Shown here one piece after another: positions 22,661 through 45,474 of a stretch of DNA of 64,000 bases; positions within the stretch are counted from its first letter, which is position 1; the number at the start of each line of letters is the position of its first letter. The notes under the pieces are model-generated. The model worked only from the letters and a program-made list of their open reading frames with translations, did no database searches and had not been told where the DNA came from. A program made the translations under genes and the position numbers. Source of the DNA: Thermoanaerobaculia bacterium (GTDB lineage Bacteria; Acidobacteriota; Thermoanaerobaculia; Multivoradales; DATKCC01); NCBI GenBank assembly GCA_033762835.1, contig JANRLG010000029.1, positions 12,795 through 76,794 on the forward strand, given 5' to 3'.

Positions 22661-22868
22661 ACGCCAAATGCTACCGCGCTTTTCTTCTCTCTTGCTCTCC
22701 ACGTTCTCGACACCCGCCCGCCGGAGCCGACTCCCGGCGGTCGGGGCCTCCTCGCACCGGGCCGGGTCGGTGTCGCTTCTCGCGGCATCGCTTCCCCGGG
22801 GGCTCTCCGGCCCGGCTCGGTGCCCTTTTCTCTTCACTTCAGGGTCTCAACCGACAAGGAGCGATTTC

Positions 22869-24556: not shown

Positions 24557-24622
24557 CCCTTTTTTGCGACTACCGGGTTCCTACGAACGATGAGCAGCCG
24601 CCTCTACTTGGAGATTGGAATC

Positions 24623-28100: not shown

Positions 28101-30212
28101 TCAGAGCTGTCCCCGGTCTCCGGCACCACGACCCACACCTACGACGAACACGGCCAACTCGTGACCACGACGGACGCTCGCGGGGTCGTGATCGGCCGCA
28201 CCGTGGATGCCACGGACCGCGTAACGCTGGTCGACTACCCCGGCACCGATCTCGACACCACCTACACCTACGGCACCAACCCCGCCGCCTTCGATGTCGG
28301 CCGCCTGGTTTCGATCACCCGCCCGAACGGCACCAGCGTGCCCTACGCCTACGACCGCTTCGGCCGCGTGTTGACCGATGGCGAGATGAGCTTCACCTAC
28401 GACGGCAATGGGAATCGATCGACGATCGGCTATCCTGGTGGCACCGTGGCGTCGTATACCTACGATTACGCCGACCGCCCCACGAGCCTGTCCGTGACGC
28501 CCGCGGGCGGTAGTGCGCAGACGGTGGCCTCCGCCGCCTCGTACCTGCCCTCGGGGCCGTTAACCGCCCTGACGCTCGGCAACACCGTCGTCGAGACGCG
28601 CAGCTTCGATGGCCGCTACCTGCCAACCGCCATCCAAGCTTCGGGCAACCGGCTGACCTGGAACTACACGACCGACGACGTCGGCAACCCGACGGCGATC
28701 ACGCAGACGCAGCCGGCGGCCGAGAGCCGGACCTACGGCTACCAGGACTTCCAGTACTTCCTGACCTCGGGAGTCGGCCCCTGGCCGGGGCCGCTGTCCT
28801 GGACCTACGACCGCATCGGAAACCGGCTGACCGAAACCCGCGGCGCCTTCACGGACAGCTACCAGTACGTCCCGAACGCTGCCACTCCGACCCCAGGCAA
28901 CACGGCGATCCTGGACCAAATCGGCCTCGGTATCGGCGGTACCCGAGACTACGGTTTCGGCCCCGCTGGCCACCTCGACGAGATCGTCTCGGGAGCTGTG
29001 ACGACCGGTTACCAGCACAGCCCCGATGGCCAGCTCACCGACATCGGCACCCTCGGCGCCCGCTCCACGATGACCTACGACGGTCGCGGATTCCTTCGGC
29101 AAGCCGAACAGCCGGCGTTCTCGATCTTCGAGGACAGCTTCGAAACGGTGGATACCTCGTGCTGGAGCGAGACGGTCCCGGATTCCACCGAGTCAAGCCC
29201 CGCGGGCGCCTGCTTCGCTCCTGGAAGTCCAATAACCACCACCGCCACCTACGGCTCCGAGGGCTTGCTCTACTCGCTCTTGCGTTCCAACAGCGAACGC
29301 CACCACGTGCTCTACTTCGCCGGCCGACCGGTCGCACAACTGCGCGTCCCCACGGCCGGAACCGCCACCTTCATCTACCTCACCACCGACCATCTCGGCA
29401 CGCCGATTCTGGCGATGAACCAAGCCGGCTCCACCCTCTGGCGTGGGGGCTTCGAACCCTTCGGCGCGGACTGGAACGGAAGTGCCACGGCAGCCGGGGT
29501 CTTTCTGCGCTTCCCGGGGCAATGGGACGATGGCGCTTGGGCGGGGGTGGGGGCGGCAGAGCTCAGTTACAACCTGCACCGGTGGTACGAGCGGGGCACG
29601 GGGCGGTATGAGCGGGTAGACCCGCTTCATTCTGCCGGAAAGCTCGACTTCGTGTTTGTCAAGAACAGGCCATTGTCACTTATCGACCCCTTAGGGCTAA
29701 AAGAATGCAGTCGGTGCGACCAGTGTCCTTGCGGTGTTTGGCTCTACACCAATCCAGAACTCGAGTTGTTTGCATTCACTGGAGGAGCATCGGGAGGTGC
29801 CCTAGCGTTTAGCTGCGCGTGTAACAGTACTGTTTGCACTGGTCCAGTTAGCTCCGTTACAGGGCTCGGCGGGGCAAGTGTCGGCGGAGGCGTGGTGGCA
29901 AGCGCGGTCTTTAGTGTTGGCATTGCCTGGGATGCATGTAATTCGAGCGACCTCGAAGGGCTTGGAGTGGCCGTCGGTCTGAGCGGCCTAGGTGGGCTCG
30001 GATTTGGATTCGAGGGTGGCTCTTCTCCCTCCTCAGGCGCGCGATTCGCGGACATTGGAGCAGGTGTCGGAGCGGGAGCGGTAACCCGGCTGAGGTTTCC
30101 GCATGTAGGCCCACTCATCTGTAGACGGCAGCCCGTTCCGCCACAAGGCCCACTCCAGCCTGCCTTTTGTGAGACCAATGCCAGTGACCCAGCTTGCTAC
30201 TTCTCGAACTGA
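25170..30212 (+). CDS. Sec-secreted RHS/YD-repeat polymorphic toxin with a Gly/Ser/Thr/Cys-rich glycine-zipper C-terminal toxin domain
   Basis: 1680 aa. Signal peptide, Cys-rich N-terminal domain, many YD repeats (YDxxGRL), RHS core ending in DPLGL near 29.67 kb. C-terminal tail of about 165 aa with GxxxG arrays. Confidence 0.9.
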   Translation: MFDRLSRHGFGALVGLISFSSPIAQAQSSAWPVDGSSQALLQLQGGPELLEDFVCSSSSDGFQYGFMERAGSSLAELTSPCSSVGRCELPKSEGSFIALKQESCSPATSACEVRLWAPLEFPGNAQNFTGGRPTGKLLFYSSPTASSCAPWPGPSCGQIAECGFSGANQVQADFIYAWIERGGVTCANAETLTDDFSLAAWQCVTSTASCRRLTPVNSLIFGGPELAKGIGCRREIPPDSCGEAENCDRCRVGVGLGDGKPGFAVAGGGPGATLYYRAGGTGSRFTPGESSWRQELGRSWSHSYAERIVVDPDDSHVWLLTKSGSFREWSGLSGGLYTSVFPSDEKRTLTRTVGGWELQELDGTVHGFGSDGRWQSTTDRYGNAKTATYAAGRLSTVSFPDGRSETFTYHPDSKLASIAEVGVGGSPTRTWNYVWSGDDLIRINRPDGTAWRFRYAANGYPGFMTHHYLVPMTGAERVIQRWRYDREGNVVETWSGDETPTPTSPNRWQFAYDNPADPAVVTVTDPLGVAATVNLERETVPGQIRPKARVTSYSGDCPSCSLGPNSQLEYTDPANPLRPTRVIDGKGHITDLVYDDLGMVTERTEAVGTAVERTTTWTYASTYPALVASMTQPSTSGGLAERETTTGFDASGNATTRTETGIEGGSAFSHSTITTFNAAGQPLTIDPPGHGTADQISFTYDPARGNLVPLTRTDPIGTTTYLYDAFNRRVRVVDVNGVATDTQYDDLDRVVKTLQRATTPADPAALAGPGDLVTEHTYAPLGDLYCTKFPSGNALARVYDAAGRLTEVRRGVGLATIGSVAACLNPSPARQRVRFEYNGAGQKVLESQDQETTPIDNWVRRAATAYEYSTRCHLDKMIQAPGLPEESVTEYDYDCNGNLERTWDPNHPSGGQVNPATAVYTYDALDRLTTLTQPWGGAGGGNVVTSYGYDVQDHLTAVTDGEGSVTSYVYSDRDLMTSELSPVSGTTTHTYDEHGQLVTTTDARGVVIGRTVDATDRVTLVDYPGTDLDTTYTYGTNPAAFDVGRLVSITRPNGTSVPYAYDRFGRVLTDGEMSFTYDGNGNRSTIGYPGGTVASYTYDYADRPTSLSVTPAGGSAQTVASAASYLPSGPLTALTLGNTVVETRSFDGRYLPTAIQASGNRLTWNYTTDDVGNPTAITQTQPAAESRTYGYQDFQYFLTSGVGPWPGPLSWTYDRIGNRLTETRGAFTDSYQYVPNAATPTPGNTAILDQIGLGIGGTRDYGFGPAGHLDEIVSGAVTTGYQHSPDGQLTDIGTLGARSTMTYDGRGFLRQAEQPAFSIFEDSFETVDTSCWSETVPDSTESSPAGACFAPGSPITTTATYGSEGLLYSLLRSNSERHHVLYFAGRPVAQLRVPTAGTATFIYLTTDHLGTPILAMNQAGSTLWRGGFEPFGADWNGSATAAGVFLRFPGQWDDGAWAGVGAAELSYNLHRWYERGTGRYERVDPLHSAGKLDFVFVKNRPLSLIDPLGLKECSRCDQCPCGVWLYTNPELELFAFTGGASGGALAFSCACNSTVCTGPVSSVTGLGGASVGGGVVASAVFSVGIAWDACNSSDLEGLGVAVGLSGLGGLGFGFEGGSSPSSGARFADIGAGVGAGAVTRLRFPHVGPLICRRQPVPPQGPLQPAFCETNASDPACYFSN

Positions 30213-30219
30213 GAAAAAA

Positions 30220-30492
30220 ATGACACCCATCATCAGGAAGTCTTTCCAGTTCGGACTTCTCGCCTTCTTCGCGATCAGCGTCGCCCTCGGCTTCGCCCGG
30301 GAGGGACCAATATCTCTTGTAGTTGGGATATTGGTTGGCACGGGAGTCTTCCTAGTTAGCATGATGCGGCCGAGAATTGACCGAGCAGAAGGAAGTCTTA
30401 GTGAGCAACCGGTGCCTTCGTCGGTCTTGGCTGGAGGAGTTGTGCTGCTAGTGGTGATTGGAGCCGCATTGGCTCTGGTCATCAGTTGTTGA
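30220..30492 (+). CDS. small 3-TM membrane protein (candidate immunity protein for the RHS C-terminal toxin domain)
   Basis: Starts 8 nt after the RHS stop. About 90 aa with three hydrophobic helices. Confidence 0.5.
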   Translation: MTPIIRKSFQFGLLAFFAISVALGFAREGPISLVVGILVGTGVFLVSMMRPRIDRAEGSLSEQPVPSSVLAGGVVLLVVIGAALALVISC

Positions 30493-31031
30493 CCTCGCCG
30501 TCGCCTCGGCCGACTTCGGGAGCGGAGTTTCGGCAGGCCAGACGAGCGGGAGAACCCGTTTGCCTATGCGAAGTCTCGGACTACGGTCTTCGTCGACTGG
30601 CAGGGACTCGAATGCAGCAAGGCCCGGGCGAGACTTGGGTGGGATATGGAGCCAAGGCAGACGCTCTCGTGGGAGCGGGGCTATCAATCGGAGGGAATCT
30701 CGCTCTCTACCGCTTCTCTTGCCTGTCGGCAAACCTGAAATGCGATGTGTTCGTCGCATGCGGGAAGTTCCTCGGATTAGGAGCATCACTCTCGTTGACC
30801 GGCGTGGGAGTTGCGGCCTTCAACGCAGAGTGCGCAAGTGACTTAGAAGGGCTTTCGCTAGGTGGTGACGCTGACATTGGGATTGGAGGCGCAATTTCTG
30901 CAGGAGCATCGATCTCGACATCGACGGACCCATCGCTGGTGCTCTCGGTTGAGGGTGGCGTGGGCATAGGTGCGAGTACAGGCGTTACTGTGTGCGGCGG
31001 CACCGTAATAACTTGTCGAAAGGGAGGCTAG
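30486..31031 (+). CDS. orphan RHS C-terminal toxin cassette, homologous to the C-terminal toxin domain of the upstream RHS (start uncertain, possibly ATG near 30612)
   Basis: FSCLSANLKCDVFVACGKFLGLG...NAECASDLEGLSLGGD aligns to the RHS tail FSCACNSTVCTGPVSSVTGLGG...WDACNSSDLEGLGVAVG. It retains an ECxxC junction remnant and has no YD repeats. Confidence 0.55.
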   Translation: MLTSPSPRPTSGAEFRQARRAGEPVCLCEVSDYGLRRLAGTRMQQGPGETWVGYGAKADALVGAGLSIGGNLALYRFSCLSANLKCDVFVACGKFLGLGASLSLTGVGVAAFNAECASDLEGLSLGGDADIGIGGAISAGASISTSTDPSLVLSVEGGVGIGASTGVTVCGGTVITCRKGG

Positions 31032-31038
31032 CGTGATC
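31021..31038 (+). repeat. 18-bp cassette-junction direct repeat AGGGAGGCTAGCGTGATC, copy 1 (stop TAG, SD, and GTG start in one unit)
   Basis: Identical 18-mer recurs at 31774-31791. Both copies end an ORF in GG* and open a GTG reading frame (MIVSLVV... versus truncated VIISLETLR*). Confidence 0.7.
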
Positions 31039-31344
31039 GTCTCGCTGGTTGTCTTCGTCTTCGTATTCTTGGTCTGGGCGCTCGTCTTAAGTAGTAGCGG
31101 GTCGATTTCGAGGGTCGACAAGCATGGTTTTTTGTTCCGGCCAATTCTAGACAGTGAGACTTACTATGCCCTGTCTACGTTCCGTCTGCCGGTGAGCGAG
31201 GAACGAAATGGTTGGAGACGGATTCTCCTGCCCTTCTCTGATAAACGCTTCCTGAGGCTGAGGAGCAGAATATGCGTATTCCTGAGAGATTCCGACATCG
31301 ACCGAGACTTCCTAAGCTTGGTATCGAAGCGTGGTCCACATTAG
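31033..31344 (+). CDS. small membrane protein (candidate immunity protein for the orphan toxin)
   Basis: GTG start 1 nt after the upstream TAG, inside the conserved junction repeat. N-terminal TM. Confidence 0.45.
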   Translation: MIVSLVVFVFVFLVWALVLSSSGSISRVDKHGFLFRPILDSETYYALSTFRLPVSEERNGWRRILLPFSDKRFLRLRSRICVFLRDSDIDRDFLSLVSKRGPH

Positions 31345-31424
31345 AGGAGCTAGCTCTGAAGCCTCACAAGTGAAGGCAGAAGCAGCTCCATTTTTCGACC
31401 GTTGAGGCTGCTGAAGGGTGAGTC

Positions 31425-31784
31425 GTGGAAATAAACCTAGTAAAAACCGATCCGTTCTACCGCCACACTTTGATCTGCATTGGAAGCCTGGCGGCGGTGG
31501 CGTGGCCGTTCGCGATCTTCACGCCAAGGCAGATGACTGCTGCCGGAGAGGCCCTCTTCTTCGCTGGCATCGTTGCTGTCCTTGGCCACCACGTCTTCCT
31601 GTTTAGGCTAGCAGGGCAGTGCAAGGGCCTAAGCCCAACCGAAGCCCAGTCTCTCCGTAAGTCGATCCTCTTCTTCGGCCCGGCTGGAGTCGTCGATTTC
31701 CTTTGGCGGGTCTTCCGAACGCCGGACCGAGATTCGGCAGGGGAAAGCCCAGAGAGCCGGCACCCTCGGCGAGAGGGAGGCTAG
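31425..31784 (+). CDS. small 3-TM membrane protein (orphan immunity-like)
   Basis: 119 aa with three hydrophobic helices. Ends in ...REGG* inside the second copy of the junction repeat. Confidence 0.45.
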   Translation: MEINLVKTDPFYRHTLICIGSLAAVAWPFAIFTPRQMTAAGEALFFAGIVAVLGHHVFLFRLAGQCKGLSPTEAQSLRKSILFFGPAGVVDFLWRVFRTPDRDSAGESPESRHPRREGG

Positions 31785-31791
31785 CGTGATC
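31774..31791 (+). repeat. 18-bp cassette-junction direct repeat, copy 2
   Basis: See copy 1. The downstream GTG ORF is truncated after 9 codons. Confidence 0.7.
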
Positions 31792-31904
31792 ATCTCACTT
31801 GAGACGCTGAGGTAGAGAACGACAATCGAAAAGCATTGAGCCGGTAAAACTAGTCGCTGGCTCAGGGACGGGATCCGGACTAGTCGCGAGATTGGAGGTC
31901 AGTT

Positions 31905-32093
31905 GTGAAAGCACCCGTAGGATTCACCATCCACCGAGAAACCGTTCGGATTCTCAACGAAGCTGAAGCGGACCGAACCCGGGGCGACAAAGCCCCACCG
32001 CAAGCTTTCCACATCAGCGAGTGGTGCACTGGAGCTCCGCTGACGGGAACCTGCACGGACTATTGCGTCGACAAACACAGCATCTGGCGGTGA
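31905..32093 (+). CDS. candidate class I lanthipeptide precursor (LanA-like): leader plus C-terminal core CTGAPLTGTCTDYCVDKHSIWR
   Basis: 62-aa ORF. GGAGG SD 6 nt before the GTG. It is 33 nt upstream of lanC. The last 22 aa contain 3 Cys, 5 Thr and 1 Ser. Confidence 0.35.
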   Translation: MKAPVGFTIHRETVRILNEAEADRTRGDKAPPQAFHISEWCTGAPLTGTCTDYCVDKHSIWR

Positions 32094-32125
32094 AGTTAAG
32101 GCTTGTCAGCTGACAGGAGGCTCGG

Positions 32126-33445
32126 ATGACGATAAATAGGACCTCTACCGTCTGCTGGCAAGCCTTGGTCTGTGACGCGGATCGCCGGTCGGCAGCCTTG
32201 ACCGCCCTCGACGCGATCATCCAAGATCTTCAGGCAATGGAAGACCCATGGGGGTCGTTCCTTGGTCACGTCGATCTTGCCGATCAGGCTCGGGCGCGAA
32301 CGACCCTGCAGCACGGCGCGGCAGGGCTGCTACTTTTCGATCGTTATGTCGGGGCGAGTCGAGCCGACGCGCTGGAGCTCGAGCGAGCGCACCGTGACGC
32401 CTTGTTCCAGGCTTTGGCTCACGAACCACTGCCACCGTGGTTGTTCGATGGAGTGGCAGGACTCGGATGGGTATTGGCGCATCGTCTCCGAGCGGGTCAC
32501 GAAGAGAACTTAGATCTGGCCGAGTTGGACGATCTGCTGCTCACTTACCTTTCTAAGGCTGGAGAGAGCATTCCGTTCGAGCTGATCGCGGGACGGGTTG
32601 GCCTCGGTCTCTACTTCCTCGAACGTCTCCCTGTGGCCAAGGCACGGGAAGGCGCCGAGGCAATCGTCGCGTCTCTCGAGCGGTCGGTCGAGTCTCGTCC
32701 GGATGGGCTCACGTGGCGCACCGTCGCTGATTGGATGGAACCAAAGGCGGCCCGAGTTCTTTCCCAGGGATTGTGGAACCTCGGCGTATCCCACGGTGTC
32801 CCGGGCGTCATCGGCTTCCTGGCGCGTTGCGCAGAGGAGAAGATCTCTAGTCCGGAGTGCCGTCGGCTGCTTGCAGGAGCAATTCCCTGGCTTCTCGGGC
32901 AGCGCAACCCTCCCGACGCGGCAAGGGCGTTCCCCTTTTTCTCCAGCGACGGCGGACGCTCGGAGGAAACCCGCCTTGGTTGGTGTTACGGCGAAGTCGG
33001 CATCGCCGCTGTTCTGATTCGGGCTGGGACGGCGATAGGAGTCGACGAGTGGGTAAGCGAAGGTCTTGACCTGGCCTTGAGGGCGGCTGCCGCGAGCTTC
33101 GAGCATGCGTTCGTCGATGAACCATCGCTGTGCCATGGCGCCGCAGGTTTGCTTCATTCCTTCAATCGAATGGGGCAGGCTTTGAATGAGCCGCGCCTTC
33201 TCGACGCGGGTAGACGGTGGTTTGATCACACGCTCGACTTTTTCCGACCCGGGAAGGGGCTGGGAGGGTTTGATTACCTGCACGCTTATTCTAGGACCGA
33301 GCGGTTCAGCGTGCCGGGTCTCCTGATCGGATCGGCTGGCGTGGGGCTCGCTTTGCACGCGGCGATTCAGGGAGAAGTGGAACCGAACTGGGACCGTGTC
33401 TTCCTTCTCGACCTACCATTGAGCCGCAGGGGGCAGCAACCATGA
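32126..33445 (+). CDS. lanC: lanthipeptide cyclase LanC
   Basis: SHGVPG, WCYGEVG and CHGAAG zinc-ligand motifs of LanC-like proteins. AGGAGG SD upstream. Confidence 0.8.
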   Translation: MTINRTSTVCWQALVCDADRRSAALTALDAIIQDLQAMEDPWGSFLGHVDLADQARARTTLQHGAAGLLLFDRYVGASRADALELERAHRDALFQALAHEPLPPWLFDGVAGLGWVLAHRLRAGHEENLDLAELDDLLLTYLSKAGESIPFELIAGRVGLGLYFLERLPVAKAREGAEAIVASLERSVESRPDGLTWRTVADWMEPKAARVLSQGLWNLGVSHGVPGVIGFLARCAEEKISSPECRRLLAGAIPWLLGQRNPPDAARAFPFFSSDGGRSEETRLGWCYGEVGIAAVLIRAGTAIGVDEWVSEGLDLALRAAAASFEHAFVDEPSLCHGAAGLLHSFNRMGQALNEPRLLDAGRRWFDHTLDFFRPGKGLGGFDYLHAYSRTERFSVPGLLIGSAGVGLALHAAIQGEVEPNWDRVFLLDLPLSRRGQQP

Positions 33446-36400
33446 AGGTTGGCTTCGGAATTGAGCCCGTTGGTTTCGCTTGGCTGCGAGCGGCACAGTC
33501 ACCTATCAGCGACTTGAGCACGAGCCCCTCGTCGGCCAGGAGCGAGCTGGCAAACGAATTCTTGGAAGCGGTCTGGCTGGCAACTCCGGAATTCGTCGAG
33601 TCTTTGCCGAGCGAGCTGACGGAGAAGCAACTCCGAACCCTGCGGCGATACTGGCTCAGGATGGCGGGACGACCGACACCCTTCGGCCTCTTCGCAACAG
33701 GCTCCCTGGTGGTCGTGGCTGCTGAGGGACACCCTCAGCCTCAAGTCCGATTCGAGTTGGAGCCGACCATGTCTCGCCGATCGGTGCTCGATTGGGGCGT
33801 CATGCATCGATTGGCAGCTCTCTGGAGGAAAAGCCTGGGAACAAAGGCGCGGTTCCAAACGACCGGGGCACTCTGGAAGTCTGCGAAGCGGCTTCACTAT
33901 CTGCGCGCCGAGAAGACCACGGATGCAGCCACTGCGTTTGTCGCAACAACCTCCCAGAGCAGCCGTCCCCTCGTCGAAGCACTGCGCTTAGCTCGTGAGC
34001 CCGGAGGAGTGTCACTCGAGGCGCTCGGTGAGCTCCTCAAGAAACGGTTCCCAGGCGTAGAGGACGCGCAGATCGCTGGCTTCTTAGACGAGCTTGTCGC
34101 CGAGGGCCTCCTTCTCCCGGTTCTGGAGCCGTGTGTCATCGGCGAAGACGTGCTCGCAGAGCTGTACGCGGAGGCCGTAGAGTCGGGCGCTCAGTTCCGC
34201 GATCTCCTGCGCTTTGGAAGACTTTGCGAGCGCCTCGGCCGTCTCGACCAGCCTGGGGACACTTTCGGCGCAGCACGGTGCCTTCGTCGGGCTCTTATCC
34301 GATCAAAGTTGGTCGATGAAGGCAGCCCGGTCTTCAACGTCTCCGCATACCGCGGTGTTCGTGAGGGAGCCCTGAGCCAGGAAGTCGCCGCGGAAATCGG
34401 TCGCGGCCTCGAGCTCTTGGCGAGCTTGGCTCCGAACTCGAACCCGCCTGCACTCGAGGCTTTCCGGGAGGCTGCTGAGCGGCGTTACGGATTAACCTCC
34501 ATTCCGCTCCTCGAGCTGCTCGACGAGCGTCTCGGGTTGGGCCGCGAGTGGCGCCGATTCTTGAAGAACGAAAGCACCGCGGTTACCGTCTCCACGGATA
34601 GCTTGAGCCTCCCCTTCGAGGCGGTTTCTCGGAGCAGGGAGGAGTGGATACTACGAGATGAGGACGTCGCGCCGTTCCTCGAACGCGGAGCACAGCGTGC
34701 CACCTCACTGCGTTCGCTTGCGGCGGTCGTCACCCTTGGCGAAGCCGATAACTCCGAGTCCATCGTCGTTCTTCACGGTGGCTATGGCCCCTCGGCGGCG
34801 ACGTTGCTCGGCCGCTTCTGTGTAGGGCACACCGAGTTGCAAGAACGCGTCCGCGATCTCGCGGAGCGGGAGCAGCTCTCGTGCGATCCGTCGCTCTGGC
34901 TTGCCGAAATCTCGCATCTGCCAGCAATTCGGGCCGGAAACGTCCTTCATCGACCCACTCTGAGGAAGTTTCAAGTGCCCGTTCTGGCGCCGTCGGCACC
35001 AAGGGGAGCGGTTTGTCTTGCCCTCGAAGATCTCTGGGTTCGTTCGGACGGTACGAAGCTACGGCTCTATTCTCGACAAACTCGCCGTGAAGTCGAGCCT
35101 TCGTCTCTCAACGCGCACAATTTCCGCTTTCAAGGCAACCTCTCAATCTACCAGTTCCTATCTCTGCTTCCATTGCAGGGCACTCCTCAGCCCCTGCGCT
35201 GGAGCTGGGGCCGTGCGTTCGAGCGGGCGGTCTTTCTGCCTCGAGTGCGATGGGGCCGACTCATACTCAGTCGAGCTCGCTGGCACCTCGATCGTTCGCG
35301 AGTTCGTGCCGAGGCCCTTGAGGCCTGGATCGATCAAAATGCGGTCCCGCGGTTTATTGGCCTCATCACTGGCGAGGACGAAATCGCGCTTGACCTTCGT
35401 TCGAACGCCGGCATGGAAATGCTGCACGAAGAGTCTCGCAGGAGGGAACGGGTCGCTCTGGCAGAGATCTTGCCCTTGCCAAACGAACTTGCGGTCCGGG
35501 ATGAGCGAGGGCGCTATTGTCACGAACTCATCGTGCCCTTTCTGAGCTCAGGTTCACCACCCAAGGCTTCGAGTCAGAAGCTTCCGCCGATCGCGCGCCG
35601 CCCGTCCCGGAGACGACACTCCGACCGTTGGCTCTACTTGCGGCTCTACGCGCCTGACCAAGAGCTCGACGAGATTCTCCTCCAGTGCATTTACCCGACG
35701 ATCGCCAAATTAAAACGGGACAGCCAGCTGGAGAAATGGTACTTCTTGCGTTACTCCGACCCGGACCATCACGTTCGCCTCCGAATACTGCCTGCCGCCA
35801 AGATTTCTCCGGAGGATCTGCTGGGGATCGTGGGTCACGAGATCGGTCCTTTTCTGAAGTGCAGAGCCCTCCACCGGCTCGAGTGGGCTGCCCATGAAGT
35901 CGAAGACCATCGCTACGGTCCACCTTCGACGCTCGCGATCGTCGAAGAGGTCTTCACCAGCGACAGCGAGTGGGTGCTCGAGTTGATCCAGTGTTTGAGA
36001 CGGGACCGGCTCGAGAAGAACCGAGCAGATTGGATGGTCTACAACCTCGACCGCTGGTTCGAAATCCTTAGCTGGCCGATCGGACTTAGAAGCGAGCTGT
36101 TGTCTTCACTCCGCGCGGCGTCGGCGGAAGCGCACCCGGCGGCCTTTCCAGAACGTTCTACGCGCGCTGCGCTCTTTCGGACTCGGAGGGAAGGGCTCGA
36201 GACGCTCTTGAGCGACGCCTCCGGCAGTGTACCGGCCGTTGTCCTGCGCGCCAACCAACAGCGGGCTTGGCGGCTCCGCCCGCTGCTCTCAAGTCTTCGT
36301 CAAACGAGGACTTTCCGGGGCCGGGAGGCCTTCGTCAAGTTGGTGGGCAGCCTGCTCCATCTCAGCACGAACCGCCTTCAAGCCTGGCCAGACCGAGGCG

Positions 36401-36501
36401 GCGAAGCGGTCGCCCTAGACTTCTTGGAGCGCATCTACCTTTCGCGAGCCGCTCGCGCGCGCCTGGTCCCTGGTTGGAGCCCGAGAGAACAGCGTCGGTA
36501 G
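33442..36501 (+). CDS. lanB: class I lanthipeptide dehydratase LanB (glutamylation plus elimination domains)
   Basis: 1019 aa. N-terminus RRYWLRMAGRPTPFGLFA matches the lantibiotic-dehydratase N-domain. KWYFLRYSDPDHHVRLRI matches the SpaB_C (thiopeptide-type) elimination domain. ATGA overlap with lanC. Confidence 0.8.
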   Translation: MKVGFGIEPVGFAWLRAAQSPISDLSTSPSSARSELANEFLEAVWLATPEFVESLPSELTEKQLRTLRRYWLRMAGRPTPFGLFATGSLVVVAAEGHPQPQVRFELEPTMSRRSVLDWGVMHRLAALWRKSLGTKARFQTTGALWKSAKRLHYLRAEKTTDAATAFVATTSQSSRPLVEALRLAREPGGVSLEALGELLKKRFPGVEDAQIAGFLDELVAEGLLLPVLEPCVIGEDVLAELYAEAVESGAQFRDLLRFGRLCERLGRLDQPGDTFGAARCLRRALIRSKLVDEGSPVFNVSAYRGVREGALSQEVAAEIGRGLELLASLAPNSNPPALEAFREAAERRYGLTSIPLLELLDERLGLGREWRRFLKNESTAVTVSTDSLSLPFEAVSRSREEWILRDEDVAPFLERGAQRATSLRSLAAVVTLGEADNSESIVVLHGGYGPSAATLLGRFCVGHTELQERVRDLAEREQLSCDPSLWLAEISHLPAIRAGNVLHRPTLRKFQVPVLAPSAPRGAVCLALEDLWVRSDGTKLRLYSRQTRREVEPSSLNAHNFRFQGNLSIYQFLSLLPLQGTPQPLRWSWGRAFERAVFLPRVRWGRLILSRARWHLDRSRVRAEALEAWIDQNAVPRFIGLITGEDEIALDLRSNAGMEMLHEESRRRERVALAEILPLPNELAVRDERGRYCHELIVPFLSSGSPPKASSQKLPPIARRPSRRRHSDRWLYLRLYAPDQELDEILLQCIYPTIAKLKRDSQLEKWYFLRYSDPDHHVRLRILPAAKISPEDLLGIVGHEIGPFLKCRALHRLEWAAHEVEDHRYGPPSTLAIVEEVFTSDSEWVLELIQCLRRDRLEKNRADWMVYNLDRWFEILSWPIGLRSELLSSLRAASAEAHPAAFPERSTRAALFRTRREGLETLLSDASGSVPAVVLRANQQRAWRLRPLLSSLRQTRTFRGREAFVKLVGSLLHLSTNRLQAWPDRGGEAVALDFLERIYLSRAARARLVPGWSPREQRR

Positions 36502-36548
36502 CTAGTTGATTGAAATGCTAGATTAGGGCCGGTGCCGAGTGTTGGCCC

Positions 36549-37625
36549 TTGAGGTCGAGAATGAAGACTGCTTACCCCCGGATGGTCGTGACAAGCCTCG
36601 TCGGCTTCTCATTGATATCGGGCCTCGGATGTTCCAAAGCCAATCCGGCGGTAGCGCATGAGCTTACCGCTCGGGTCGAAAGCGTCGCTATCCAGGATTC
36701 CGTGCTGTCTCCTGGACGGGTCGTCGCGGATGTCGGTGGACAAGTTCGCGTCGGCCCACGGATCTCCGGTCGCTTGAAGAGGCTCCTCGTCAAGGAAGGC
36801 GACTTCGTTCGAGTCGGCCAGCTCGTTGCTGAGCTGGACGACGACGAACTGAGGAGCCGTCTCGCCGAGGCATCCGCGGCCAGGACAGAAGCCGAGATCT
36901 CCGTTGAGGGTGGCCGAGCGCGATCCGAGCGACGCCGTCGCCTCGCCGCGGAAGGGCTGCTTTCTCAGGACGAAGCCGAGGCCGCTCGTATCGAGTGGGA
37001 GCGTTCGAAAGCGGCTCTTCTTCGCCTTGAAGGGGCAGAGAATCGAGCGAGGGTCGAGCTCGGTTACTCCAAGCTCACGGCTCCCATCACCGGAGTCGTC
37101 ACCCGCGTCGCCACACAAGAGGGAGAGACCGTAGCATCGAGCTTCGAGACGCCAACGTTTCTTACGATCTTGGATCCGAACCTTTTGGTTGTTGAAGCGC
37201 TGGTCGACGAAGCCGACATCCGACGCATAGCCGTTGGCCAGAAAGCGCAAGTGACGTTCGATGCTCTTCTTGGCGAGACTTGGAGTGGACGCGTTCGAAC
37301 CGTGAGCCGCGAGCCGACTGAAGCAACGGGTCCAGTGCGCTTTGCAGTGGTTCTCGATCTCGAGGGCGGATCTCGCTCCGAGTTGCGACCACGATTGACG
37401 GCTACCGTCGAGTTTCAACAGGGACATGGTCGATCCCAGCTAGTTGTCCCCGCAATGGCTCTGCGACAGGATGGCTCGGGCTTCTACGTCCTCGTGCGCA
37501 GAGCCGAGGGTTCGCTGGAGCGCCGCGCTGTGCTTCCAGGTCCTGAGCAGGGAGGTCGGGTCTCGGTCTCCGGAGAGATCCAGGAGAATGAGATCGTCAT
37601 CCTTGTGCCGCCTAGAAAGGAATGA
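36549..37625 (+). CDS. HlyD/MacA-family periplasmic adaptor lipoprotein
   Basis: Lipobox LISGLGC; biotinyl-lipoyl-like and beta-barrel regions. Confidence 0.8.
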   Translation: MRSRMKTAYPRMVVTSLVGFSLISGLGCSKANPAVAHELTARVESVAIQDSVLSPGRVVADVGGQVRVGPRISGRLKRLLVKEGDFVRVGQLVAELDDDELRSRLAEASAARTEAEISVEGGRARSERRRRLAAEGLLSQDEAEAARIEWERSKAALLRLEGAENRARVELGYSKLTAPITGVVTRVATQEGETVASSFETPTFLTILDPNLLVVEALVDEADIRRIAVGQKAQVTFDALLGETWSGRVRTVSREPTEATGPVRFAVVLDLEGGSRSELRPRLTATVEFQQGHGRSQLVVPAMALRQDGSGFYVLVRRAEGSLERRAVLPGPEQGGRVSVSGEIQENEIVILVPPRKE

Positions 37626-37629
37626 AGCG

Positions 37630-38301
37630 TTGATCCAGCTCGAAGCGATCTCGCGTTCAGTGCCGACAGGAAGTGGCGCGCTTTCGATCTTGAAAGGAGT
37701 GAGCTTGGAGATCGAGGCCGGGGATTACGTGGCGATCATGGGTCCCTCGGGAAGTGGCAAGAGTACCTTGTTGAACATTCTCGGGCTTCTCGATGTGCCC
37801 ACGAACGGCCGTTACCTGCTCGAGGGACAAGACATCGCCAAGGAAACAGACGCACGTCGCAGCCGTCGCCGAAACCAAACCTTCGGTTTCGTCTTCCAGC
37901 TGTTTCACTTGTTGCCGCGGTTGACGGTTCGAGAGAACGTCCTCTTGCCTCGTCTGTATGGTCGCGAAGAGCTCGATGACATCGAGGAACGGGCGGATGT
38001 CTTGATTCGGCGCCTGGGACTAGAAGCTCGTCGGCGCTCGTTTCCCGGCGTCCTCTCCGGTGGAGAACGCCAACGTGTCGCCATTGCCCGAGCGCTGCTC
38101 AACGAACCCCGAATTCTCCTCGCTGACGAGCCCACTGGGAACCTGGATCAAGCGGCGGGACGAGAAGTGCTCGACATTTTTCGAGAACTCTCGCGAGAAG
38201 GGCAAACCTTGGTCGTCGTGACCCACGATTCGAACGTGGCGGCTGAGGCCCAGCGCGTGCTTTCCATGTCCGATGGGAGGCTCACCGAATGTCAGCCGTG
38301 A
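37630..38301 (+). CDS. MacB/LolD-type ABC transporter ATP-binding protein
   Basis: GPSGSGKST Walker A, LSGGERQR signature, LLADEPTGNLD Walker B. TTG start placed after the AAGGA. Confidence 0.8.
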   Translation: MIQLEAISRSVPTGSGALSILKGVSLEIEAGDYVAIMGPSGSGKSTLLNILGLLDVPTNGRYLLEGQDIAKETDARRSRRRNQTFGFVFQLFHLLPRLTVRENVLLPRLYGREELDDIEERADVLIRRLGLEARRRSFPGVLSGGERQRVAIARALLNEPRILLADEPTGNLDQAAGREVLDIFRELSREGQTLVVVTHDSNVAAEAQRVLSMSDGRLTECQP

Positions 38302-39539
38302 CGATGCTAGCTCGTCGCCTTCGGCACGTAGTGCGAACCGCCAGCGGCTTTCGGATTCGATCCTTGTTGTTGGTTTTGGTTCTGACCTTGTCGAGCCTTT
38401 GCCTGGCGGCGGTCGCGGGCCTTCATCGCGGTCTCGCAGCACAAACGACGAGGCTGATCGAATCGGTGGGCAGCGATTGCTACCGAGTCTCTTCGCAGTC
38501 TAGGTGGTCTCGCTCGCAAAGCGGTGTCCGGATTTCCGACGACAGCCTGGACCTGGAGGATCTGAGAGCACTCGAGATCGAGCTCGGGGACCGTTTCCGA
38601 TTCGCTCCCTACACAGGGGGCCAGGCGGTGGATCTCGCTCTCGGTGATCGCCGAATCGAGGCCGACCTACTCGGAATCGGCAACGAGTATCTTGCGCTGA
38701 GGGCTTGGCGTCTGGAGCACGGAAATTCCTTCCGCGAGTCCGAATCCGAAGCCCAGGAACTCGTCGTAATCCTCGGCGCCAGCGTCGCAAGGGAGCTGGG
38801 TGGAGAGGGTCTCATCGGACAAATCATCCGTGTCGCCGACGCTCCGTTTCGAGTCACCGGGGTCCTGGCAGCGAAAGGAGCCGGCGTTCTCGGCGAGGAT
38901 CAGGATCGACGCGTCTTTGTACCTCTGGACGTCGCGGCGAAACGGGTTTTCTCTTCCAGTGGCCTGCGAGGCTTCCTGGCGGTGCCCAGGGATACTCTCT
39001 CGAGTGAGAGCGTCACGGAGTTGCTCACTCGAGGCCTCGAAAGACGCGGTCACCACCTCTCGGGTCCAAATCAGGATGCCTACCTAACTGGTCCCGATTG
39101 GCTGCGCGCGCGATATCGCGGCTCATTCTCGGCCGTCCTTCGCGCTGGAGAAATTCTCCTTCTTTGCGTTGGCTTGATCGCCGCGGTGGTCGTATGTGCC
39201 GGCTTCTACTTTGCGGTTGCGGAGCGCTCCACCGAGATCGGTTTGAAACGAGCTCTCGGGGGAACACGCCTCGCCATTGCGTCGGAAGTGCTTCTCGAGT
39301 CCGCAATCCTGGGCTGTTTGGGAACGGTCCTGGGCTCGGGCTTAGCCTGGGTGGGAAGTCGTATCGTCAGCTCGACCTCAGAGATCGCTCCTGGGTTTTC
39401 TCGTTATCCGATTGCCGTGACTCCAGGTGTGGCGCTGCTGGTCGGAGGGGGCACGCTTCTCTTGGCGTTGACCGCCGCGCTTCCGCCGGCTTGGCGCGCA
39501 GCGTCCAGCCGTCCCGCCGATAGCCTGCGGTCCGAATGA
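38289..39539 (+). CDS. ABC transporter permease, FtsX/MacB family
   Basis: N-terminal TM, periplasmic domain, C-terminal FtsX 3-TM region. Overlaps the ATPase stop. Confidence 0.75.
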   Translation: MSAVTMLARRLRHVVRTASGFRIRSLLLVLVLTLSSLCLAAVAGLHRGLAAQTTRLIESVGSDCYRVSSQSRWSRSQSGVRISDDSLDLEDLRALEIELGDRFRFAPYTGGQAVDLALGDRRIEADLLGIGNEYLALRAWRLEHGNSFRESESEAQELVVILGASVARELGGEGLIGQIIRVADAPFRVTGVLAAKGAGVLGEDQDRRVFVPLDVAAKRVFSSSGLRGFLAVPRDTLSSESVTELLTRGLERRGHHLSGPNQDAYLTGPDWLRARYRGSFSAVLRAGEILLLCVGLIAAVVVCAGFYFAVAERSTEIGLKRALGGTRLAIASEVLLESAILGCLGTVLGSGLAWVGSRIVSSTSEIAPGFSRYPIAVTPGVALLVGGGTLLLALTAALPPAWRAASSRPADSLRSE

Positions 39540-39550
39540 GTGGGCCCTAG

Positions 39551-40783
39551 GTGCCGACCTCCAGCCTAAGACGCCCCATCCCCTTCTTGCGCCGAAGTCT
39601 CCGGTTCTGTACGGCAGGAGCGCAGGATCTCTGGCGGGCTCGGTATCGTCTGGCCCTTCCAGCTTTGGCTCTAGTCATGGGGATCGTGGGGATGGGGATC
39701 AGTGGTGGGATCAGAGAAGAACTAGACGAAGCCTTCGAAGCAGAAGCACAACGATTGGGACCAGATACTGTCGCGATCTCCCGCGAGCCCACTCAGACTG
39801 GCGTCACTGGGACCCGTGGTTCTCGGCCCTTGCTGCTCGACCGCCGGTTTCTCGTCCGGGCTCGTACCTCTTTGTCATCGGACGCCTGCCAGATTTCGGG
39901 ACTGTCGAAGCGTACCTTGCCAGTCCGAGCCGAGGCGACTCGTGGCTCTCTCGATGTCATCGCACTCGAAGCCGACTGGTTGGTGCGTCGAGCGATCGTC
40001 CCCCAAGCCGGTCGCCTTCTCTCTCAGGCCGATGACGTGCGACGGGCTAAGGTGGCCGTGCTCACCGTGAGCGCGGCATCCCGCCTGCTTGGAGCAGCCC
40101 CTGCGGTTGGCCGTCGTTTACACGTCGCCGATGTTCCTTTTGAGGTCGTTGGAGTTGTACCGGACTTGCCGAGCCTAGCGAGTGCCGATTCCCTGGAGGC
40201 CATTCTCATCCCGCTCACCGTCGGACCCGCCAGCCTTTGGCCCGATACCGAACTCACCGTCGTGCACCTCGACTGTATCGAGCCCTTGCGATCTGTCTTC
40301 GCCCGAGACTTCATCGCACTCTGGGAATCCCAGCGCCCCCGGGACTCGCTCAAAGTTCATTCGCCGCTCGAAGTCTTGCAACTCGCACAGGAAAGAGACC
40401 GCGCAACTGCCCGGGTCTTTGGGCTAAGCAGTTGGTTCTTGATGGGTCTCGGAGCACTCGGGGTTTTAGCCCTTCAGCTTTTGGTCATGCGAAGGCAGCG
40501 CGCAGAGGTCGGAGTACGTCGTGCGGTGGGAGCCAGTCGAGCGGCCATTCTAAGTCAGTTCTTGCTAGAGGCGTTCGGTTTAGTCTTGCTCTGTTCCTCG
40601 CTCGGGTTCCTCGCTGGCTGGTTCATAGAATTGAGTGTGCTCGGAGATCCGGAAGGACTCGCTTGGTCTTGGCAAGAGGCCTTCAATGGCGCAGTCACTG
40701 GAGGAATTTTCCTCCTCTTAGGAGCGCTGATACCAGCTTTCCTGGCCGCCTGGGTGGATCCCGTCGAAGCGCTCAGAAAATAG
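39551..40783 (+). CDS. second ABC transporter permease, FtsX/MacB family
   Basis: Same architecture as the preceding gene. Confidence 0.7.
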   Translation: MPTSSLRRPIPFLRRSLRFCTAGAQDLWRARYRLALPALALVMGIVGMGISGGIREELDEAFEAEAQRLGPDTVAISREPTQTGVTGTRGSRPLLLDRRFLVRARTSLSSDACQISGLSKRTLPVRAEATRGSLDVIALEADWLVRRAIVPQAGRLLSQADDVRRAKVAVLTVSAASRLLGAAPAVGRRLHVADVPFEVVGVVPDLPSLASADSLEAILIPLTVGPASLWPDTELTVVHLDCIEPLRSVFARDFIALWESQRPRDSLKVHSPLEVLQLAQERDRATARVFGLSSWFLMGLGALGVLALQLLVMRRQRAEVGVRRAVGASRAAILSQFLLEAFGLVLLCSSLGFLAGWFIELSVLGDPEGLAWSWQEAFNGAVTGGIFLLLGALIPAFLAAWVDPVEALRK

Positions 40784-41610
40784 TCCGGCCCTTGCCTATG
40801 CCAAAGGCCTCAATCCCGCTCCCGTCCCTTGCTACCGCCCGCACCATGCCCACCGCCCGCTCGATCAGGTAGATCGGGCCGGCGGCGGGACCGAGGAGCT
40901 TGCCCACGGCGTAGTCGGCGACGGTCCGGCCGAGGGTGTCCTCATGAACTGCCTTGGCGAGGCGTAGCGCGGTGGTGACGGGCTGGAGCATCTCCTTGAC
41001 CTCGCGCTCGCCGTGACGAAGCACCAGGCGGCCGGGTCCCGGAGCGCGTTGTCGTTCTAGCTCCGGTCGTTGAGCTCAACGATGCGGCCCGAGAGGTTGC
41101 GGGCGTAGTCGTGCAGCCGGTCTTTCCGGCGCTCCCGGGAAGCCACCAGGGGCTCGAGCTTTCGGATCTGACCGCGGTGTTGCTGGAGGTGCACCAGCTC
41201 TCGGCCGGCTTCGGCGGCGGCCTCGCGGGCCTAGGACCGGGCGGGGGTCTGGAACGGCCCGAGGCTCTTGCCGCGGAGCCGGCCGAAGCGCTCGGGCTCG
41301 AGCTGGTCGGCGACATCGCGGGGTTTGACCCACACCGCGCGCTGGAGGCGCTCCGAGACCTCGCGGGCGTCGTCGCCGCGATAGGCCTTCTTGAGCAGGG
41401 CGTCGAGCTTATACTCGGAAACGGCCTCTTGATCGCGCAAGCCGCGGAAGTACTCGAGCCTCTAGCCGATCCGGTCGGCGAGTCCGACCGCCTTCTGCCA
41501 GCGCTCCCGGCTGTCGAGCCGCTCGAGTTCGTGCTTGAGGTGGCGGCGAATCGCGCTCGCGTCGCGGCTCTAGGTGTCGAGCGCCAGCCCAAACTCTCCA
41601 TAAGGCGACA
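40773..41610 (-). pseudogene. decayed ORF of unknown function with four in-frame TAG codons and a terminal frameshift
   Basis: Minus-frame translation reads through TAG at four positions between coding-like segments (e.g. EAVSEYKLDALLKKAYRGDDAREVSERLQRAVWVKPRDVADQLEPERFGRL). The last 83 aa lie in another frame. Confidence 0.4.
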
Positions 41611-41675
41611 TCCAGATTTACGACCCGGCTGGGTCGTTGAGCTGGGGTTGTCAGGATCTTTGAGGGGTCCTGGCG

Positions 41676-42420
41676 ATGCCGAAAGTGAGTTTGGAGGCGA
41701 AGATGACGATTCAGGAGTTGTTTGGTCGGGGCTTTTCGCGTTGCGCGATCGCGTCGGCGTTGTCGGTGACGGAAGGTACGGTGCGGTATCACCTGCGTCG
41801 GTTGTCGGGTCGCGCGTTGGACGGGCGGTCCCGTCAGGTGCAGAAGGCGTCGGGCTGGTCGGAGGCGATTGGTGTCTGGTTGTCGAGCCGGTCTCGGGGT
41901 TGGAATCTGGCGTCGTTGCACGGGTGGCTGGTGTCGGAGCATGGGTACCCCGGGAGCCTGCGTTCGGTGGAGCGTTTCGTGGCTCGGGAGTATCCGGCGC
42001 TGGCGGTACGGGCTCGTCGCCGGGTGGAGACGCCGCCCGGGGGTCAGGCGCAGGCGGACTGGGCGGAGTATCCCGGGGTGGTGGTGGGCGGCGAGGTCGT
42101 GGATCTGCGCCAGTTCGTGATGGTGCTGTCGCACTCTCGACGGACAGTGGCGGTGTGGTCGGTGCGCAAGGACCTGCTGTCGTGGCTGACGGTGCATAAC
42201 GAGGCGCTTCGTCGGCTGGGTGGGGTACCGGCGACGGTGCGGGTGGACAATGAGCGGACGGTGATGTCGCAGGGCTCGGGCTCGTGGGCACGGTGCACCC
42301 GGTGTACCGGCGCTACGCGGAGTCGGCGCGTTTCCACGTCGACGTCTGCGCGCCGCGCAGCCCGCAGGCCAAGGGCAAGGTGGAGCGCCGGGTGGGTGCC
42401 CAGCGACAATTAGTCCTGTG
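41676..42420 (+). pseudogene. istA: IS21-family transposase IstA, N-terminal part (HTH plus start of DDE core), interrupted
   Basis: HTH, QAQADWAEY and VLSHSR motifs. Frame breaks after VRVDNERT and continues PVYRRYAESARFHVDV...AKGKVERRV in another frame before the inner IS left terminal inverted repeat. Confidence 0.65.
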
Positions 42421-42512
42421 CACTGGCGACAACTACTTTTGTGCAATCCGATCGAATTTAGCTGAGGGTCTGAGAAGGCCTGTTTAGCTGCCACGCTCTC
42501 GAGTCTTCGCCG

Positions 42513-44768: not shown

Positions 44769-45002
44769 CACCACCGCCGGTTTTCCACAGCCTCGACCCC
44801 TCTTCCCCCGGACCCCCATCACCCCGGCCCCCGGCCTGCCGGACTGTGGAAGGCTGCCGACCCCAAAACCCCCAACCGGCACCCTCCCACAGCCCTTGGA
44901 AAACGCTCCGCGTTTCCCACAGGCCAGCGGCCACGACGACGACGAAACTACGGGTCTCTCAGAATGGAGGATGCACAGTTCTAATTGTCGCCGCTGCACA
45001 GG

Positions 45003-45470: not shown

Positions 45471-45474
45471 CGCG

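Follow-up and report, generated by a model that had tools for sequence, protein, structure and literature searches.

Does a stretch of bacterial DNA that stands out from its surroundings by low GC content coincide with the foreign element that carried it in, or is it one part of a larger element? The question is raised by a locus in a metagenome-assembled genome (MAG) of a Thermoanaerobaculia bacterium (Acidobacteriota), of which a 64-kb stretch of an 83,493-bp NCBI contig, hereafter called the window, was analysed. Between positions 29640 and 40800, the window carries the C-terminal toxin domain of an RHS/YD-repeat polymorphic toxin, a series of small open reading frames (ORFs) that include an orphan toxin module, and a class I lanthipeptide (lan) gene cluster with a MacAB-type pump. 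A first-pass annotation had read this segment as a single "competition island" with the RHS core as its anchor on one side and nested IS21 copies on the other. We arrive at a different reading, to which we assign a probability of roughly 80%: a 26.9-kb island, acquired horizontally and since immobilised, has the low-GC stretch as its un-ameliorated and recombination-prone core, and this core is a mosaic of two independent units, an RHS tip array and a lanthipeptide block. The foreign character of the DNA and its competition-type content are upheld, and "competition island" is a fair descriptive label for the region; what has to be given up is the idea of one island with those anchors and limits. 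All coordinates below are those of the window, and features lie on its plus strand unless the minus strand is named.

The compositional anomaly is real. The whole window has 66.4% GC, as compared to 60.4% in 29640-40800 and 67.7% across the remainder; this is the lowest-GC 11.2-kb interval in all 64 kb, and an unconstrained blind search for the best two-state segment returned 29601-40800 with a log-likelihood ratio of 106. The difference between 1-kb bins inside and outside the segment has p = 6e-7 (Mann-Whitney). GC at third codon positions (GC3) follows the same course, from 0.79-0.92 in backbone genes (mreB, the ABC-2 permease, pckA, the S9 peptidase and others) and 0.80 in the N-terminus and core of the RHS gene to 0.53 in the RHS C-terminal toxin domain, 0.57-0.68 in the immunity and orphan ORFs that lie 3' of it, 0.64-0.69 in the lanA candidate, lanC and lanB, and 0.62-0.65 in the four pump genes. 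Tetranucleotide usage, normalised for base composition and judged against equal-sized backbone windows, departs from the backbone as well, with r = 0.78 for the lan block (9.1-kb null windows, 0.92 +/- 0.025, minimum 0.87) and r = 0.48 for the 2.1-kb tip array (null, 0.82 +/- 0.05). The block is therefore foreign by GC, GC3 and tetranucleotide usage alike, and the significant departure that had been predicted for it is borne out. The contrast in GC levels likewise exists, though it had been overstated by 2-3 points on each side: the backbone mean is 67.7% (mreB 65.9%, pckA 66.3%), and the values within the segment are 61.8% for lanC and lanB, 58.8-62.0% for the pump genes and 51-60% for three small ORFs. 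The edges also have to be moved. The switch had been placed at the DPLGL motif of the RHS protein and starts at about 29625, some 25 codons 5' of it; backbone-like composition was said to return only after the IS21 region and in fact resumes at 40815, inside a relaxase pseudogene that precedes it. Beyond these edges, composition is likewise aberrant, to a lesser degree than at 29.6-40.8 kb, in the RHS core and in the left arm of the island (20-25 kb); the left arm gives r = 0.78 against a null of 0.89 +/- 0.03, a weaker but significant departure, and a second patch of low GC3 (0.62-0.72) occurs at 20.0-22.3 kb.

The limits of the island itself were set by synteny. Among GTDB species representatives, the best match to pckA is no more than 72% identical and shows no conserved synteny, and boundaries could not be defined from it; close relatives were found through 90%-identity protein clusters of backbone genes. 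One of them, an 11.8-kb Logan contig from ERR14048183 (L120), holds both flanks of the region at 92-94% nucleotide identity, with its bases 2-4491 (in the orientation of the window) corresponding to 15315-19804 (94%) and its bases 5498-5820 to 46738-47060 (92%). The intervening 1,006 bp (bases 4492-5497) hold a dprA-like gene (DNA_processg_A) and a C-terminal fragment of a comF/PRTase-like gene. A contig from JGI 3300078829 that is 90% identical to the window (L082) departs from it at the same point on the right and likewise terminates in the comF-like fragment, and the two relatives share an island-free layout in which dprA-like and comF-like genes lie beside ygaP. In a 79% relative (L084), which was found by scanning metagenome contigs for the ABC-2 permease, synteny ends at 19797. 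Since L120 joins the two chromosomal flanks, 19804 to 46738, with other genes (1.0 kb) between them, the strain-specific island extends from 19805 to 46737 and is not confined to 29.6-40.8 kb. Its 26.9 kb occupy a site at which L120 has about 1.0 kb, and the low-GC block makes up just the middle 40% of its length. The dip in GC thus marks the least ameliorated part of the island and not its limits, and the true ends lie 10 kb farther to the left and 6 kb farther to the right. The synteny comparison that the first-pass annotation had proposed does define insertion boundaries, at places other than those it expected, and the block is missing from the relatives whose locus is readable (L115, described below, and L120). 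The RHS core, an XRE regulator and hypothetical genes, taken earlier for a backbone anchor, are absent from L120 and are all island cargo. The presence of dprA-like and comF-like genes at the site in island-free relatives further implies that the arrival of the island removed competence-related genes.

The internal structure of the island is revealed by relatives that have a version of it. In L115-L118, from a groundwater metagenome, the locus is colinear with the window, with an XRE regulator, accessory genes, an RHS gene, a small membrane protein and a relaxase. In L115 the RHS core is 71% identical in amino acids to that of the window, and the C-terminal toxin and the ORFs that follow it are unrelated to those of the window; there are no lanthipeptide genes. 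A 106-aa membrane protein corresponds to window 31417-31712 (78% nt identity) and is followed by small ORFs and a 798-aa protein that are absent from the window, and then by a MobA/VirD2-type relaxase with MobC, the relaxase corresponding to 40815-41573 (80% nt, 74% aa). The left neighbour of the L115 island is TerC, as opposed to the ABC-2 permease in the window, which indicates that the island occupies different contexts in different lineages; L084, from the same metagenome as L115, has the ABC-2 permease with other genes 3' of it. The equivalent 2.2 kb of the L115 tip region is also low in GC (0.56), and the RHS tip zone is therefore a long-standing low-GC compartment of this island. The L115 contig ends just past mobC in a G-rich tandem repeat (its bases 22260-22935), and this repeat probably accounts for the missing right end of that island in the assembly.

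These comparisons bear directly on whether the low-GC segment arrived in one event, as an 11-kb "competition island" held between the RHS core on its left and IS21 on its right. Such an origin would explain why the low-GC DNA forms one continuous, sharp-edged segment with all of its genes on one strand, and why, in tetranucleotide usage, the tip array is closer to the lan block (r = 0.70) than either of them is to the RHS core. We nevertheless consider it quite improbable, because the gene conserved with L115 at 31417-31712 splits the block in two and L115 has a low-GC tip with no lan genes, because the RHS core and the genes upstream of it are cargo absent from L120, because a GC-rich relaxase remnant parts the lan block from the IS21 elements that were to serve as the right-hand anchor, and because GC3 is unequal between the two units, 0.53-0.57 versus 0.62-0.69.

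The lan block, 9.1 kb at 31716-40814, stands in place of the approximately 3.3 kb of L115 that encode the small ORFs and the 798-aa protein, a segment that is host-like in composition (0.69 GC). Homology to L115 stops at about 31712, within the 3' end of the membrane-protein gene, and resumes at 40813-40815, within the relaxase gene and some seven codons from its 3' end. L115 has both of these flanking genes in full and the window alone has them clipped, and therefore the window state is the derived one; no flanking repeats or microhomology were found at the junctions. On this alignment evidence, the lan block reads as a separate, derived replacement within the island. The alternative that the block, or the island as a whole, is ancestral and has been lost in relatives, with low GC reflecting weak codon selection in rarely expressed genes, draws some strength from the membrane-protein gene, which is low in GC in both the window (60%) and L115 (55%) and shows that such a composition can persist, as well as from the small number of relatives that the comparison covers. 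It is improbable in view of the clipped state of the genes beside the block, the island-free layout that L120 and L082 have in common, the different flanking context of the L115 island along with its mobilisation genes, and the occurrence of lan genes of the same composition in an unrelated contig (L081, see below).

It might also be supposed that low-GC DNA of another organism was joined into the contig during assembly or binning. The source is a MAG, the junctions at 31.7 and 40.8 kb have no second confirming assembly, and the frameshifted genes nearby (the orphan toxin, the relaxase and both IS21 elements) may hint at sequence errors. An artefact of this kind is very improbable all the same: the RHS reading frame runs uninterrupted through the GC switch, the low-GC tip zone recurs in the independent assemblies L115-L118, and the sequence on either side of the lan block is colinear with L115, with order and orientation preserved, such that a chimera would need two precise joins without repeats.

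The view that the island was acquired by mobilisation and has since been immobilised draws on the mobility genes and candidate ends that it retains, namely a relaxase remnant (with an intact relaxase and MobC in L115) and two IS21 elements. A 27-nt direct repeat, GCTGGGGTCC-N5-GGGKTCCATTTC, occurs at 19931-19957 and 46545-46571 and is a candidate element end or recombination site; the pattern has exactly two occurrences in the window, with 0 expected from 100 shuffles, and it is also found at the left end of the colinear island in L115 (one copy) and in L116. Outside the repeats, 126 bp on the left (19805-19930) and 166 bp on the right (46572-46737) match no sequence compared, and the right-hand piece has only about 56-58% GC. 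The relaxase pseudogene (40815-41573, minus strand) comprises the C-terminal half only, corresponding to residues 254-501 of the 509-aa L115 protein, and contains four in-frame TAG codons and one frameshift; the nuclease domain and mobC are missing from the window. Amber recoding was considered for this remnant and rejected, given that the two TAG codons that can be aligned replace Glu codons and that the gene is truncated and frameshifted. GAG-to-TAG is the commonest one-step nonsense route in a GC-rich gene, and we take the Glu-to-TAG changes seen in the alignment as probable single GAG-to-TAG substitutions and ordinary decay.

Adjoining the relaxase remnant are two nested IS21-family elements (41591-46533), assigned by istA (helix-turn-helix, rve and Mu-transposase C-terminal domains), istB (AAA+) and terminal repeats. 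The outer istA is split at about 42402 and 45015 by the inner copy, which itself consists of istA and istB, and Pfam rve, Mu-transpos_C_2 and IstB matches lie on both sides of it. Both copies are frameshifted, and all four of their genes are interrupted or frameshifted. Two 21-bp terminal repeat motifs occur at each end of the inner element, and matches to the outer ends, which are approximate, lie at 41601-41625 and 46496-46530; exact termini and target-site duplications were sought for the IS21 elements and could not be fixed. As all of the remaining mobility genes are pseudogenes, the island is probably now fixed in place. Near the right end of the outer element there is a near-perfect 24-nt hairpin (46269-46292 with 46310-46333), followed by a strongly purine-rich, A-skewed stretch at about 46390-46470 (AT skew 0.63 in 46200-46499).

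The first of the two low-GC units, the tip array (29625-31715), consists of the core end of the RHS gene, its toxin, an immunity candidate, an orphan toxin, a second immunity candidate and a membrane protein. The RHS/YD-repeat polymorphic toxin itself is a protein of 1680 aa (25170-30212) with a signal-peptide-like N-terminus, a YD shell (Pfam RHS_repeat, E = 3e-33, seven stretches) and an Rhs-associated core (NCBIfam TIGR03696 at residues 1429-1510, 34.3 bits versus a cutoff of 32.5) that ends in DPLGL at 29685-29699; the toxin domain follows at 29700-30212. In public annotation the protein starts at residue 192 (1489 aa). The window ORF extends 191 codons farther upstream (25170-25742), and the longer form probably has the real start, since those codons are conserved in the closest homolog (P0126). 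This homolog is 71% identical in amino acids over residues 1-1511 and unrelated thereafter. A second RHS protein, P0127, is encoded on another contig of the same MAG, which thus holds at least two RHS toxins; its core is 65% identical, its C-terminal domain is a different Cys-rich one, and it diverges after "...WYERGTGRYERVDP" (RYERVDP), at about window 29625, which is the GC change point. That close homologs share the core and have unrelated C-termini argues for an exchange of the RHS tip through C-terminal displacement. If the protein behaves like the Rhs proteins that have been characterised, its YD shell would enclose the C-terminal toxin, and autoproteolysis at DPLGL would free it. Neither a PAAR, VgrG or Hcp domain nor any other marker of a type VI secretion system (T6SS) was seen in the RHS protein or in the island ORFs scanned.

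The C-terminal toxin, a domain of 170 aa that includes 11 Cys and is 18% Gly, is matched by no Pfam or NCBIfam family. Word-seeded searching of 5.8 billion proteins gave no hit, and a sole relative, P0124 (42% identity, E = 8e-20), came out of an exhaustive HMMER search of 1.84 billion representatives. The two share the motifs GLK-x-CS-x-CD-x-CPCG-x-W, (F/Y)SC and AC-N-x-SDLEG. P0124 comes from a different RHS tip array (L114, from SRR23851191), in which it is itself an orphan: it lies after a core end with a different toxin and ahead of a small membrane protein whose layout is similar to that of the first immunity candidate of the window (described below). The orphan toxin module of the window is a Gly-rich ORF of 181 aa (30486-31031). 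Direct BLASTP between it and the RHS C-terminal toxin is not significant (E = 0.19), and the homology emerges only by way of P0124, which the orphan matches at E = 1e-5; it is therefore a second, diverged member of the family, which, with the orphan included, has been seen three times among about 1.8 billion representatives. A remnant of the end of the RHS core, "FAYAKSRTTVFVDWQGLEC", lies at 30550-30618 in a reading frame other than that of the orphan ORF, with DP changed to DW, which means that the orphan module is frameshifted; the decayed core-end copy, "ENPFAYAKSRTTVFVDWQGLEC", matches the core end of P0126 at E = 8e-7 and the window's own core at 9e-4. A core-end relic of this kind is the hallmark of a displaced orphan, as in enterobacterial rhs loci (PMC2935791, PMC3150448).

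Small membrane proteins follow each of the toxins. Immediately after the stop of the RHS gene, an ORF of 90 aa with three predicted membrane helices (30220-30492) is, by its position and topology, a probable immunity factor for the RHS toxin, and an ORF of 103 aa with one N-terminal membrane helix (31033-31344), whose start overlaps the stop of the orphan, is a candidate immunity gene for the orphan toxin; the two have no similarity to each other. The toxin is predicted to be beta-rich, with its Gly-rich segments tentatively read as beta-strands in a low-confidence structure model. These segments, together with the small integral membrane proteins directly 3' of each toxin, point to the membrane as its target, a suggestion that we put forward tentatively and at somewhat less than even odds. 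The array closes with the conserved two-helix membrane protein (31425-31784), which is similar to the 106-aa L115 gene (71% aa) up to about 31712. Its last ~22 codons have been replaced by a copy of a toxin-end/immunity-start junction, followed by a 9-codon stub; the 35-nt repeat that results, 31765-31799 versus 31012-31046, is 86% identical.

The second low-GC unit encodes the enzymes of a class I lanthipeptide pathway. LanC (32126-33445; Pfam LANC_like, E = 8e-34) aligns to MadC (8BYK) and retains the zinc-ligand and catalytic SHG, WCYG and CHG motifs of the cyclase (as GVSHGVPG, RLGWCYG and LCHGAAG). LanB (33442-36501) is a full-length class I dehydratase with both domains complete, Lant_dehydr_N (4-649 of 649, E = 2e-94) and Lant_dehydr_C (1-255 of 255, E = 2e-40), and its PDB matches are MibB and NisB. 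Upstream of them, a 62-aa ORF (31905-32093) with a GTG start and a GGAGG ribosome-binding site has in its C-terminal 26 residues, ISEWCTGAPLTGTCTDYCVDKHSIWR, 3 Cys and 6 Ser/Thr, so that up to three rings are possible. From these sequence features we favour it, by somewhat better than even odds, as the lanthipeptide precursor (lanA). LanB would modify the precursor by glutamylation and dehydration of its Ser/Thr residues, with closure of up to three thioether rings by LanC. From lanC to the point at which the ATPase and first FtsX genes meet, the genes overlap or nearly abut, with the exception of a 47-nt gap between lanB and the adaptor gene, and for this reason the lan block reads as one tight operon of seven genes; a promoter and terminator scan gave hits at chance level, and the small ORFs have no Pfam or NCBIfam match.

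Only one relative of the LanB has more than 33% identity to it. This protein (53%) is encoded in L081, an unrelated contig from SRR29054613 with lanC, lanB, an extra 211-aa gene and an adaptor gene, at a GC of 0.63 and a GC3 of 0.66-0.73; the other matches, at 33% or less, come from many phyla. As L081 has the same unit with the same composition, the pump belongs to the cluster, and the composition belongs to the lineage of the cluster and not to the host. The L081 contig starts inside lanC and offers no homolog of the 62-aa ORF for comparison. Its 211-aa gene (bases 3284-3919) lies between lanB and the adaptor gene and is without a Pfam match; it may encode the leader protease missing from the window cluster. 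Class I lanthipeptide enzymes tend to cluster by phylum (bioRxiv 10.1101/2020.03.13.990614), and a lower-GC member of the Acidobacteriota is a plausible donor of the lan genes.

The remaining genes of the block encode the components of a tripartite pump: a periplasmic adaptor, an ATPase of the MacB/LolD type and FtsX permeases with periplasmic core domains. The adaptor (membrane fusion protein) is of the MacA/HlyD type (36549-37625; TIGR01730, E = 1.5e-47; MacA, E = 7e-31; Pfam HlyD_D23) and its gene is 70% identical in nucleotides to the adaptor gene 3' of lanB in L081. The ABC ATPase (37630-38301), with an inferred TTG start, matches the nucleotide-binding domain of MacB at E = 3e-71, LolD at 7e-71 and the darobactin exporter component DarD at 6e-58; the darobactin exporter DarBCD is a relative of MacAB-type pumps. 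The two FtsX/MacB-type permeases (38289-39539 and 39551-40783) both contain Pfam MacB_PCD and FtsX. Their best NCBIfam match is the acidobacterial ADOP family TIGR03434, at a score below its cutoff. Whereas the name of that family (acidobacterial duplicated orphan permease) implies a fused orphan protein, each permease here has its own single-module gene and is accompanied by an adaptor and an ATPase. No outer-membrane duct gene is present in the lan block; one could be encoded elsewhere in the genome. MacB-type transporters load their substrates from the periplasm, and the family exports peptides and confers lantibiotic resistance (PMC5985334). Given this periplasmic loading, we read the pump as the step that would carry the product out of the periplasm through the outer membrane, as a means of self-protection for the producer, or as both. 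Since a MacAB-type pump is the sole transporter in the cluster, one has to ask by what route the peptide passes the inner membrane.

Several observations weigh against the history and functions that we propose. The island replaced 1.0 kb of chromosomal DNA and was not a clean insertion; the 27-nt repeats lie 127 and 167 bp inside the synteny breaks and not at the exact junctions; and no tRNA gene or Rfam match was found in tRNA and Rfam scans, no integrase domain in the ORFs scanned and no exact repeat at the junctions. L115 is only moderately close (71% aa in the RHS protein), each junction rests on one informative relative, the lan block junctions are seen in this MAG only, and the clipped genes and composition are what give the lan event its direction. 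The lanA candidate matches no family and has no clear, canonical FNLD box. An inner-membrane exporter (LanT) and a leader protease (LanP), which are common in class I clusters though not obligatory, are not encoded in the block, and the cluster may therefore fail to yield a working product. Similarity between the immunity candidates of the window and L114 is not significant, and an AlphaFold2 model of the toxin, built from a three-sequence alignment, is unusable (mean predicted local distance difference test score, pLDDT, 36).

If the nested-island reading is correct, the locus would have been assembled in four steps. A mobilisable element with the XRE regulator, the accessory genes, the RHS gene and the relaxase-MobC pair would have entered between the ABC-2 permease gene and ygaP, displacing about 1 kb. 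The RHS tip would then have been replaced and an older tip pushed to orphan status, after which about 3.3 kb adjoining the tip array on its distal side would have given way to the lan block. An IS21 element would finally have inserted into the relaxase gene and a second IS21 into the first, with loss of the 5' half of the relaxase gene and of mobC. The copy of the 35-nt junction and the 9-codon immunity stub at the left edge of the block could point to a more specific, if improbable, route for the third step, in which the lan cluster would have come by the homology-driven displacement through which RHS tips and orphan cassettes are exchanged, as cargo that lay 3' of a donor's tip array. That RHS tip arrays serve as capture or exchange sites for larger cargo and, separately, that the Cys/Gly-rich toxin represents a new class of membrane-damaging effectors are ideas that we regard as unlikely; if the first were true, RHS loci would spread antibiotic gene clusters as well as toxins.

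All components of the locus are of known kinds. The RHS part resembles the Rhs/YD loci of Enterobacteriaceae, Dickeya and Salmonella (PMC2935791, PMC3150448) in its YD shell and a core that ends in DPxGL, in the unrelated toxins of close homologs, in the small downstream gene of presumed immunity function, in the atypical composition of the tip and in the downstream orphan with a fragment of the core 3' end. It differs from them in its acidobacterial host, in having a Sec signal-like N-terminus in a window without PAAR, VgrG or T6SS genes, in a toxin family for which Pfam and NCBIfam have no model and of which, apart from the orphan, one other member could be detected, and in the location of the rhs locus on a mobilisable element. 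With class I lanthipeptide clusters, such as that of nisin (NisABTCIP; bioRxiv 10.1101/2020.03.13.990614), the lan block shares the glutamylation and elimination domains of LanB, the zinc-ligand motifs of LanC and a short upstream ORF with a Cys/Ser/Thr-rich C-terminus. Unlike nisin-type clusters, it has no LanT, LanP, LanI, LanFEG or LanRK and its order is A-C-B; its LanB is at most 33% identical to all but one database protein, its precursor is unclassified and its transporter is of the MacAB/Lol type. The pump is like MacAB-TolC, PvdRT, LolCDE and DevBCA (PMC5985334) in its adaptor, its MacB/LolD-type ATPase and its FtsX permeases with the MacB periplasmic core; unlike MacAB, it has a separate ATPase polypeptide and two permease genes, a LolCDE-like layout combined with a MacA-like adaptor, and no duct gene in the block. 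Integrative mobilisable elements and decayed islands are similar to the island in their atypical composition, absence from a near relative, a MOB relaxase, the accretion of IS elements and repeats near the ends, and differ from it in that no integrase or tRNA target was found here, the repeats are off the exact junctions and the relaxase is a pseudogene.

The locus is thus an ordinary bacterial "weapons" island in which individual genes are unusually rare. Its interest lies in the rarity of the toxin family and of the LanB, in the MacAB-only transport, in the clean nested architecture, and in a class I lanthipeptide system that branches deeply and comes with a new candidate precursor. The Thermoanaerobaculia are uncultured or barely cultured Acidobacteriota of soil and groundwater, and to our knowledge little has been learned of how they compete; the locus supplies concrete, testable parts for such competition and leaves current concepts unchanged.

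The left arm of the island consists of genes that also belong to the backbone of the L115 island. A TPR-like gene (20011-21395, minus strand) is split in the window into two ORFs (20011-20706 and 20877-21395; GC3 0.72 and 0.64), which are 63% and 32% identical in amino acids to a single 473-aa TPR protein of L115. The XRE-family helix-turn-helix regulator (22406-22837, minus strand; Pfam HTH_31 and HTH_3) has an ortholog in the same place in L115. Directly 5' of the RHS gene, two conserved genes (23204-25120) encode proteins of 450 aa and of 176 aa, the latter with a signal-peptide-like N-terminus; they correspond to L115 proteins of 419 and 156 aa at the same positions (56% and 78% aa identity) and have no Pfam or NCBIfam match. 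The presence of the XRE gene upstream of the RHS gene, along with the RHS gene and its DPLGL motif, the orphan module, lanC, lanB, the ABC exporter and the nested IS21 elements, had already been called correctly in the first-pass annotation. To the right of the island, a CNNM/CorC-type gene between ygaP and pckA (47061-48482) constitutes a second presence/absence difference among these genomes: it is present in the window, in L082 and in a further relative (L083), and is absent from L120, in which ygaP and pckA are about 180 bp apart.

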